Numbered from the stretch's first letter, positions 1 to 291 are shown. The stretch is DNA of 1,140 nt from Escherichia coli (GCF_003334315.1 NZ_QOWR01000122.1), one strand, 5' to 3'. Notes: generated from the letters alone by a model not told the origin. Program-made: numbers and translations.

Positions 1-18
1 GGTTTAATGCGCCCCGTT

Positions 19-94
19 GCCCGGATAGCTCAGTCGGTAGAGCAGGGGATTGAAAATCCCCGTGTCCTTGGTTCGATTCCGAGTCCGGGCACCA
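19..94 (+). tRNA. tRNA-Phe, anticodon GAA at 52..54, 76 nt with encoded 3' CCA
   Basis: Read directly: the sequence folds as a canonical cloverleaf with a 7-bp acceptor stem (GCCCGGA/TCCGGGC), D-arm GCTC/GAGC, anticodon stem GGGGA/TCCCC with loop TTGAAAA, T-arm CTTGG-TTCGATT-CCGAG, then ACCA. I recognise it as identical to enterobacterial tRNA-Phe (pheV/pheU type); the two loci cannot be told apart from this window. Confidence 0.97.
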
Positions 95-103
95 AATTCA
101 TAT

Positions 104-131
104 AAACGGACCTCCACGGAGGTCCGTTTTT
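104..131 (+). terminator. Rho-independent terminator of the tRNA-Phe transcript
   Basis: Read directly: inverted repeat AAACGGACCT (104..113) pairing with AGGTCCGTTT (120..129) around a short CCACGG loop region, followed by a T-run (127..131, TTTTT, then CGTTT), about 10 nt after the tRNA 3' end. Confidence 0.8.
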
Positions 132-217
132 CGTTTCAGGGCGCCACGATTTAAGCGTTCTGCCTCCAAATCAATTCTACCGAACTCAACCAGATTCTCC
201 CCACATCAACCCCATTG

Positions 218-242
218 TGTGGGTATAATTGCGGGTATACCC
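218..242 (+). promoter_or_regulatory. Candidate sigma70 promoter for the integrase: consensus -10 TATAAT at 224..229 inside a repeat and palindrome cluster
   Basis: Read directly: perfect TATAAT hexamer at 224..229, 62 nt upstream of the integrase ATG. No convincing -35 (TTGACA-like) lies 16-18 bp upstream, and the TG dinucleotides at 217..220 are not at the extended -10 position. The assignment is motif-only. Confidence 0.35.
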
Positions 243-278
243 CAGTTCGACAGAATTTGTACCCTCTTTAACGCATTC

Positions 279-284
279 AGAAGG
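279..284 (+). promoter_or_regulatory. Ribosome-binding site (Shine-Dalgarno AGAAGG) for the integrase
   Basis: Read directly: purine-rich AGAAGG ends 7 nt before the ATG at 292. An in-frame TGA at 286..288 blocks any upstream extension of the ORF, so 292 is the first available start. Confidence 0.55.
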
Positions 285-291
285 CTGAACT

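Follow-up and report, generated by a model that had tools for sequence, protein, structure and literature searches.

Predicted arm-type integrase sites between pheU and the integrase gene of a P4-family island in Escherichia coli

Results

The pheU end of an 11.7-kb island

The window, by which we mean the whole 1,140-nucleotide stretch of Escherichia coli DNA analyzed here, carries a tRNA-Phe gene, pheU (positions 19-94, plus strand), which was called by ARAGORN and gave the sole family match in an Rfam search of the window (tRNA, 68 bits). Downstream on the same strand lies the 5' part of a P4-family tyrosine integrase gene (292-1140), whose ORF starts at ATG 292 and leaves the window. The tRNA-int setting assumed in the initial annotation is thus confirmed. 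The E. coli ZF34 locus (L002), with the gene order dsbD-dicD-pheU...cadC, is 100% identical to the window; there the integrase gene is the RefSeq CDS at 20292-21554, and the full-length protein has 420 aa. Its Pfam domains are Arm-DNA-bind_3 (PF13356; residues 3-88, E = 2e-29), then Phage_int_M (PF22022) and Phage_integrase (PF00589). The arm-binding domain is complete.

The 3' end of the tRNA gene (72-94, plus strand) is the core-type att sequence TTCGATTCCGAGTCCGGGCACCA, which has been given as the 23-bp attR repeat of islands at pheV (PMC11537424). A second copy, with one G fewer, lies at the far end of the island (L002 31631-31652), and because the core is duplicated there we take window 72-94 to be the crossover region of attL. 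An 11.7-kb island occupies E. coli pheU, its integration target, and the window is the left junction (attL) of this island. The island is of the P4 family, CP4-type; its ZF34 copy looks decayed, with IS elements and pseudogenes, and its sites may no longer be in use in that strain.

Downstream of the core stands an intrinsic terminator hairpin for the tRNA gene (104-129, plus strand; 12-bp arms, then a T run). An identical hairpin lies 3' of pheV in CFT073 (L010 311-336); the terminator therefore travels with the island and is not chromosomal. Related islands at tRNA-Leu genes have a different hairpin and T run at the same position (columns 30-57 of alignment A3, described below), and the native sequence downstream of pheV (CTAATTCTTAAGAACCCGCC...) was found only past the far-end core.

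Two direct boxes and an inverted one precede int

The initial annotation had reported two tandem decamers in the intergenic region, TGTGGGTATA (218-227) and TGCGGGTATA (230-239), and both a direct look and a repeat search found them there: they are identical at 9 of 10 positions, with starts 12 bp apart. The count of two copies stands, but the repeating unit is 12 bp long (217-228 and 229-240), not a 10-nt motif. The first unit, GTGTGGGTATAA on the plus strand, holds the first decamer and aligns with the P4 arm repeat TTGGGGGCATAA; the second, TTGCGGGTATAC, on the same strand, holds the second decamer and half of a palindrome that we return to below. A third, inverted copy, absent from the initial annotation, lies about 16-18 nt past the pair. 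Its plus-strand core is TGTACCC (258-264), and the unit as a whole (257-268) reads AAGAGGGTACAA on the minus strand. We refer to these three predicted arm-type integrase boxes as P'1, P'2 and P'3. Between P'2 and P'3 is a TTCGA element (247-251, plus strand).

Could the pair have arisen by chance in so short a region, as had been allowed for? Judged from the window alone, the pair is borderline: a decamer repeat (at most 1 mismatch, offset 10-20 bp) appeared in 19% of shuffles when the whole window was shuffled and in 3.5% when only the 197-nt intergenic region was, and the 4 matches to TGYGGGTATA at up to 2 mismatches were equalled in 12 of 200 shuffles. The reservation is fair as far as window statistics go. 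It is answered by comparison, since the pair is clearly non-random only because of evidence from outside the window.

Two other elements were sought in the intergenic region. The IHF consensus WATCAANNNNTTR had 0 matches there at up to 1 mismatch. An inverted repeat that brackets the boxes (173-186/244-257) was rejected as a candidate, its complementarity not being kept in the S1 relative (alignment judged by eye).

The boxes lie in island DNA

Genomes that lack the window integrase still match window 1-208. Perhaps, then, window 95-208 is chromosomal flank, as the K-12-type match up to 208 might suggest? This was ruled out by the remnant of an older island and by the same sequence 3' of pheV in CFT073. 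The remnant, of a related island, lies between pheU and cadC in K-12-type genomes (strain 1FA, L001 1595-1951) and consists of the tRNA-proximal P' arm, a single arm box (its alignment with the window has a 12-bp gap), a TTCGG/AAAATTTG region and, between this region and cadC, a pseudogene of the 3' part of an integrase gene. It is because of this remnant that "empty" pheU sites match window 1-208 or 1-227. ZF34 keeps the same remnant beyond the 11.7-kb island (L002 31653-32008), and its island is therefore flanked by a long direct repeat, in which window 72 to about 262 matches L002 from 31630 on. At pheV of CFT073 the stretch 3' of the gene is identical, including the terminator, both decamers and the inverted copy. 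Since the same P' arm follows pheV in CFT073, we assign window 95-291 to the island, where it forms the P' arm of attL.

A second tandem pair at the far end of the island

One check set by the initial annotation was to look for the motif at the other end of the island. A GGGTAYA scan of the whole island gave a further tandem pair, TGCGGGTATAAT TGAGGGTACA, at L002 31557-31577. It shares motif, strand and 12-bp register with the P' pair, and the far-end core follows it after 53 bp. The 11.7-kb island has two instances of GGGTAYA-N5-GGGTAYA and no more, one next to each att core; among simulated (Markov) islands, 1 of 3000 contained any such arrangement. Islands at pheU and at pheV that differ in their cargo genes keep the far-end pair, varying at its spacer and Y positions.

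The pheV island of CFT073 ends differently. Its far end has a core variant, TTTCATTCCGATTCCGGGCACCA (L011 879-901), and a different tandem pair, ATGGGGGCCTCA TTGGTGGCCTCA (L011 804-827), in a 12-bp register and ~51 bp from the core. The int-proximal arm of the same island has GGGTATA boxes, unlike that far-end pair. Because the arm boxes of its two ends do not match, the sequences suggest that the ends came from different elements and that the island is a mosaic that cannot excise; the mismatch is a possible reason for poor excision. The CFT073-type far-end box had 0 matches in viral contigs.

The diverged pheU island of E. coli S1 (75%; L009 8212-21589) has two DUF262 genes and all of a BREX-1 defence system (brxA-brxL). 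IS1 has eroded its far end and the cad operon region is lost, so that this end is unusable as an independent test.

The boxes are the best-conserved block 3' of the core

Alignment A3 comprised the window, the 75%-identical E. coli S1 element, five tRNA-Leu elements (E. albertii, Citrobacter, Budvicia, Arsenophonus and Serratia; integrases 66-72% identical) and P4. The best-conserved block 3' of the core, common to P4, was TG.GGGTA.A..TG.GGGTAT ... TTCGA ... TGTACCC. Conservation in related tRNA-int intergenic regions, which the initial annotation had set as a check on both of its elements, thus holds for the decamer boxes and not for the palindrome. P'1 is invariant in 6 close E. coli alleles, as are TTCGA and the CCC of the third box; P'2 has single-base variants in O157 (GGGCATA) and TH9F11 (GAGTATA).

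The TTCGA element is invariant in 8/8 aligned elements including P4 (columns 172-176 of A3, also in A4; CTTCGATTAGAAATGTGCCC against GTTCGACAGAATTTGTACCC in the comparison of window and P4). It could be part of the promoter/start region or the site of another protein.

A genome scan with the pattern GNGGGTAYANNNGNGGGTAYA, covering about 100,000 species genomes (298 Gb), returned at least 120 loci. The number of matches calculated to arise by chance in 298 Gb is ~550, and most matches without a nearby integrase are therefore probably noise. At least 33 matches in at least 30 loci had the N-terminus of a P4-family integrase on the same strand 15-292 bp downstream; the integrases beside the listed matches are 24-73% identical to that of the window, and the listed loci with boxes span Proteobacteria. 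A tRNA or tmRNA gene on the same strand ended 112-134 bp upstream in 20 of the 33 listed matches, the corresponding gap in the window being 124 bp. Besides tmRNA, the genes upstream of listed pairs were those of tRNA-Leu, -Ser, -Val, -SeC, -Phe, -Gln, -Arg, -Tyr, -Pro and -Ala. Three further listed matches (Yersinia, Photorhabdus and locus L118) are far ends, in each of which a tRNA-Leu core fragment follows the pair after 53 bp. In 23/27 listed family members including P4, an inverted third box stands ~18-20 or 30 nt past the pair; as in P4, it often abuts the ATG. From the listed matches the 12-mer consensus is W-T-G-G-G-G-G-T-A-Y-A-W; neither the T at box position 2 (47/54) nor the G at position 4 (40/54) was imposed by the search pattern.

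Among the listed matches the gaps between tRNA end and pair are grouped into discrete classes: 112-114, 123-126 and 134 bp (loci L022-L125; window 95-218), with P4 at 114 by our own count. Because the steps between classes are about one helical turn, the spacings suggest a need for arm sites to stay in helical phase with the core.

Relatives also vary in how many direct arm boxes they have: one in the E. coli remnant, two in most, three in L066 (13351-13395), L057 and L101, and four in Shewanella (L088, minus strand 1757-1801). This variation is consistent with gain or loss of whole 12-bp units. In GPEC102 an annotated "tRNA-Ser" beside this integrase gene (L136 373-450) is in fact no more than the final ~50 nt of tRNA-Phe, starting at window position 45, fused to unrelated sequence next to a parA gene. 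ARAGORN found no tRNA at this locus, and the int module there, with its tRNA fragment, is probably an additional copy that has been displaced and mis-annotated.

The boxes overlap candidate int promoters

A TATAAT hexamer had been noted at the first decamer, and it is present at 224-229 (plus strand), inside and just 3' of P'1. It is a candidate -10 element of the int promoter and the positional counterpart of CATAAT in P4, whose best sigma-70 candidate has its -10 inside P'1. The weak candidate -35, CCCACA (200-205, plus strand; 3/6), lies 18 bp 5' of TATAAT. A position weight matrix gave CCCACA-N18-TATAAT 5.9 bits; the same alignment columns in P4 hold TTGAAA-N18-CATAAT, at 11.7 bits. A second weak candidate in the window, TTGCGG-N16-CAGAAT, scored 6.6 bits and also overlaps the boxes. 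A promoter scanner run on the window reported no full sigma-70 promoter. In 15 of 24 non-duplicate listed relatives a -35-like hexamer (at least 4/6) stands 16-18 bp 5' of the box-1 hexamer, against a calculated chance level of ~11%.

TATAAT is also part of the box consensus (GGGTAYAWW), because the far-end pair of ZF34 holds the same hexamer and the tRNA-Leu relatives have TACAAC where the window has TATAAT. A role as a -10 element is plausible. The position of the promoter, and hence the autoregulation step, is uncertain because the scanner was negative, the -35 matches at 3/6, the rival candidate scores slightly higher and tRNA-Leu relatives have TACAAC at this place. Either candidate, if real, would be covered by bound integrase.

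Repression of int through the overlap of boxes and promoter, in line with the autoregulation option of the initial annotation, is plausible by analogy. The N-terminal part of P4 Int is reportedly enough for repression, a result ascribed to Piazzolla and colleagues in 2006. Both Int and Vis of P4 act as repressors of the int promoter Pint (PMC7286903); IntI of PAI I536 in E. coli 536 likewise represses its own promoter (Chitto et al. 2020, PMC7286903). The P' arm sites of KplE1 IntS overlap the -10 of intS, and P4 Int self-regulates by binding DNA at similar positions (PMC2951348).

Upstream of P'1, the region between the terminator and the boxes (169-213) holds an imperfect 20-bp direct repeat (174-193/194-213) with recurring (A/C)TCAAC motifs. 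A CATCAA just 5' of P'1 is kept in the tRNA-Leu relatives (A3 columns 122-135); it does not match the IHF consensus and stands at the position of the -35-like TTGAAATCC of P4 and others.

Discussion

The decamers as probable cores of arm-type integrase sites

We conclude, with a probability that we put at about 0.85, that each decamer is the core of a 12-bp arm-type site, P'1 and P'2 standing in tandem, and that these sites together with the inverted P'3 form the P' arm of this P4-family pheU island. Arm-type integrase sites were one of several options in the initial annotation, and they are the option supported by the far-end pair, the annotated arm repeats of P4 and the conservation of the boxes across the family. 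The architecture, its duplication at both ends of the island, its homology with P4, its conservation in the family and the presence of an arm-binding domain are direct observations.

What we infer is physical binding, promoter position and repression. By homology with P4 and lambda, the N-terminal Arm-DNA-bind_3 domain of the integrase would bind the boxes and its C-terminal domains the core at 72-94. The far-end tandem pair, as the P arm 53 bp from the far-end core, would play the same role, and a bridged, bent intasome would carry out integration and excision. The boxes would cover the sole good -10-like hexamer (TATAAT) and the rest of the short int upstream region, and integrase bound to the integrated island would probably also repress int, as for P4 Int and KplE1 IntS.

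Might the boxes instead bind a recombination directionality factor (RDF), that is, an excisionase of the Vis/AlpA/TorI/Xis type that would bend attL for excision and repress int? We consider this unlikely. Tandem direct repeats about one helical turn apart are typical of Xis and TorI sites, the TorI sites in attL adjoin the -35 of intS (PMC2951348), and P4 has a precedent in Vis, which represses Pint in addition to Int (PMC7286903). However, the island has the motif pair on both arms and an inverted copy, the pattern of integrase arm sites and one for one that of the P4 arm repeats. RDF sites normally occur on one arm only, as in lambda and KplE1. The motif moreover tracks the integrase family over 24-73% identity and many hosts among the listed matches. 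It is because the motif lies on both arms with an inverted copy, and because no excisionase gene is annotated in the ZF34 island, that we set aside the RDF-site option of the initial annotation.

It is still less probable that the repeat has no current function, having arisen by chance or slippage and been passively inherited in a recently spread island lineage. The borderline window-only statistics would fit such a history, as would the decay of the island and the drift in copy number (one unit in the older remnant, 3-4 in other relatives). Against it, motif, register, orientation and spacings are kept where flanks are unalignable and integrases only 24-45% identical, and the motif is duplicated at the far end.

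The initial annotation had also made the perfect 10-bp palindrome GGGTATACCC (233-242; no strand), which consists of P'2 sequence plus three flanking C, part of the protein-binding architecture. The palindrome is perfect and located as reported, yet it is incidental. The window has 2 perfect 10-bp palindromes where dinucleotide shuffles of it gave 1.03 expected, and at least one occurred in 62% of shuffles. The other, TGGCATGCCA at 604, is within int, where a perfect 12-bp palindrome, CTGGCATGCCAG, spans 603-614 of the integrase ORF and is probably due to chance; the palindrome at 233-242 is accordingly not unusual. Of 5 close E. coli alleles, 3 (O157, TH9F11 and E70) do not keep it intact, nor do the 75%-identical relative (GGGTATAGTC), the older-island remnant (GGGCATATCC), any of the aligned tRNA-Leu relatives or P4. 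That it is the operator of a dimeric regulator, with the decamer repeat as a by-product, is the most improbable of the alternatives and was rejected: the dyad is perfect over 10 bp and stands just 3' of TATAAT, but about one such palindrome is expected per window, another lies inside the int ORF, and conservation follows the GGGTAYA of both boxes and not the dyad symmetry.

What the boxes mean for P4-type islands

The arm repeats of P4 have long been annotated, reportedly since their original description by Pierson and Kahn in 1987, and the predicted sites of the pheU island follow the same known design; no new mechanism is involved. We found no open-access description of the arm repeats of pheU or pheV islands, within an incomplete coverage of the literature, and the 2024 paper on pheV islands (PMC11537424) nowhere mentions arm sites or promoter.

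A broader proposition, on which we are evenly divided, is a family-wide att-site grammar for P4-type (Arm-DNA-bind_3) integrases, with a near-invariant box WTGGGGGTAYAW, helical-turn spacing and a built-in -10. Taken as one joint reading, it would hold that WTGGGGGTAYAW is nearly invariant over Beta- and Gammaproteobacteria, with integrases down to 24-45% identity; that the steps from core to arm are ~114, 124 or 134 bp on the P' side and ~53 bp on the P side, with ~19 or 30 bp to P'3; and that the box supplies a -10-like TAYAWT, with a -35 element 17-18 bp upstream, so that int autorepression would be built into the recombination site. As far as could be found, this grammar has apparently not yet been written down. 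If it is true, island ends and mobility competence would become predictable from sequence, the far end being recognizable as a pair, ~53 bp and then a tRNA 3' fragment, and mosaic or immobilized P4-type islands could be flagged. The box consensus, the helical-turn spacing and the box-borne -10 are modestly useful and not surprising.

Arm-type sites would also explain the conserved non-coding block that adjoins pheU or pheV in over 3,300 complete E. coli genomes, whose islands include carriers of LEE and of virulence genes of uropathogenic strains. P'1-P'3 and the far-end pair are concrete targets for asking why some islands excise and others are fixed.

Comparison with known systems

The closest counterpart is P4 (NC_001609), which has six annotated 12-bp "attP arm sequence repeats" with the box TTGGGGGCATAA. 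In both elements the core, a tRNA 3' end, has 12-bp units arranged as tandem pairs to either side of it, an inverted third unit stands just before int, and int directly adjoins the core. The P4 decamer TGGGGGCATA is identical to the island's TGTGGGTATA at 8/10 positions. Read in int orientation, the P pair is GTGGGGGCACAA AAGGGGGCATAT in P4 and CTGCGGGTATAA TTGAGGGTACAT in the island, 53 bp from the core in each. From core to P' pair the distance is 112 bp in P4 and about 122 bp to the 12-mer in the island (124 to the first conserved G), so that the P' arm spacing of the island is longer by about one helical turn. The P' pair itself reads TTGGGGGCATAA TTGGGGGCATCT in P4 and GTGTGGGTATAA TTGCGGGTATAC in the island; the inverted unit follows after 15 bp and about 16 bp, respectively, and then, in both, int. 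A -10-like hexamer inside P'1 is likewise common to the two.

The two elements differ in their target (tRNA-Phe for the island, tRNA-Leu for P4) and in the box, which is GGGTAYA in the island and GGGCAYA in P4. The inverted unit of P4 abuts the ATG; in the island P'3 lies 24 bp from the ATG, and a Shine-Dalgarno-like AAGG comes after it. The -35 of the island, CCCACA, is much weaker than the TTGAAA of P4. Finally, the island is a decayed CP4-type element and P4 a satellite phage.

In KplE1 (CPS-53) int also adjoins attL at a tRNA gene, the P' sites overlap the int promoter, with P'1 at the -10, and the integrase exerts negative autoregulation (Panis et al. 2010, PMC2951348). The KplE1 integrase belongs to another family, with the arm motif TAAA, and its RDF sites, transcription start and repression are experimental (PMC2951348), whereas the island is known here from sequence. 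PAI I536 offers a P4-like island integrase that represses its own promoter; that study (PMC7286903) makes no mention of arm sites and centres on an IHF site; the IHF consensus is absent at up to 1 mismatch from the intergenic region of our island.

Lambda Int is the general precedent for a heterobivalent integrase, which uses its N-terminal domain to contact repeats that lie away from the core in each of the two arms (P1, P2 and P'1-P'3; Ross & Landy 1982, cited in PMC2951348). The lambda arm sites are needed for intasome assembly. Lambda differs in the family of its arm-binding domain (PF13356 here) and in motif, site number and layout, and its int gene does not lie beside the att site in the way the island int does. 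Integrases of other islands have provided solved structures of such arm-binding domains: the first 88 residues of the window integrase match the arm-binding domains of the HAI7 island (PDB 3JU0; E = 4e-33) and of the Yersinia HPI (3JTZ/3RMP; E = 8e-26), and this N-terminal domain is the module expected to read the boxes.
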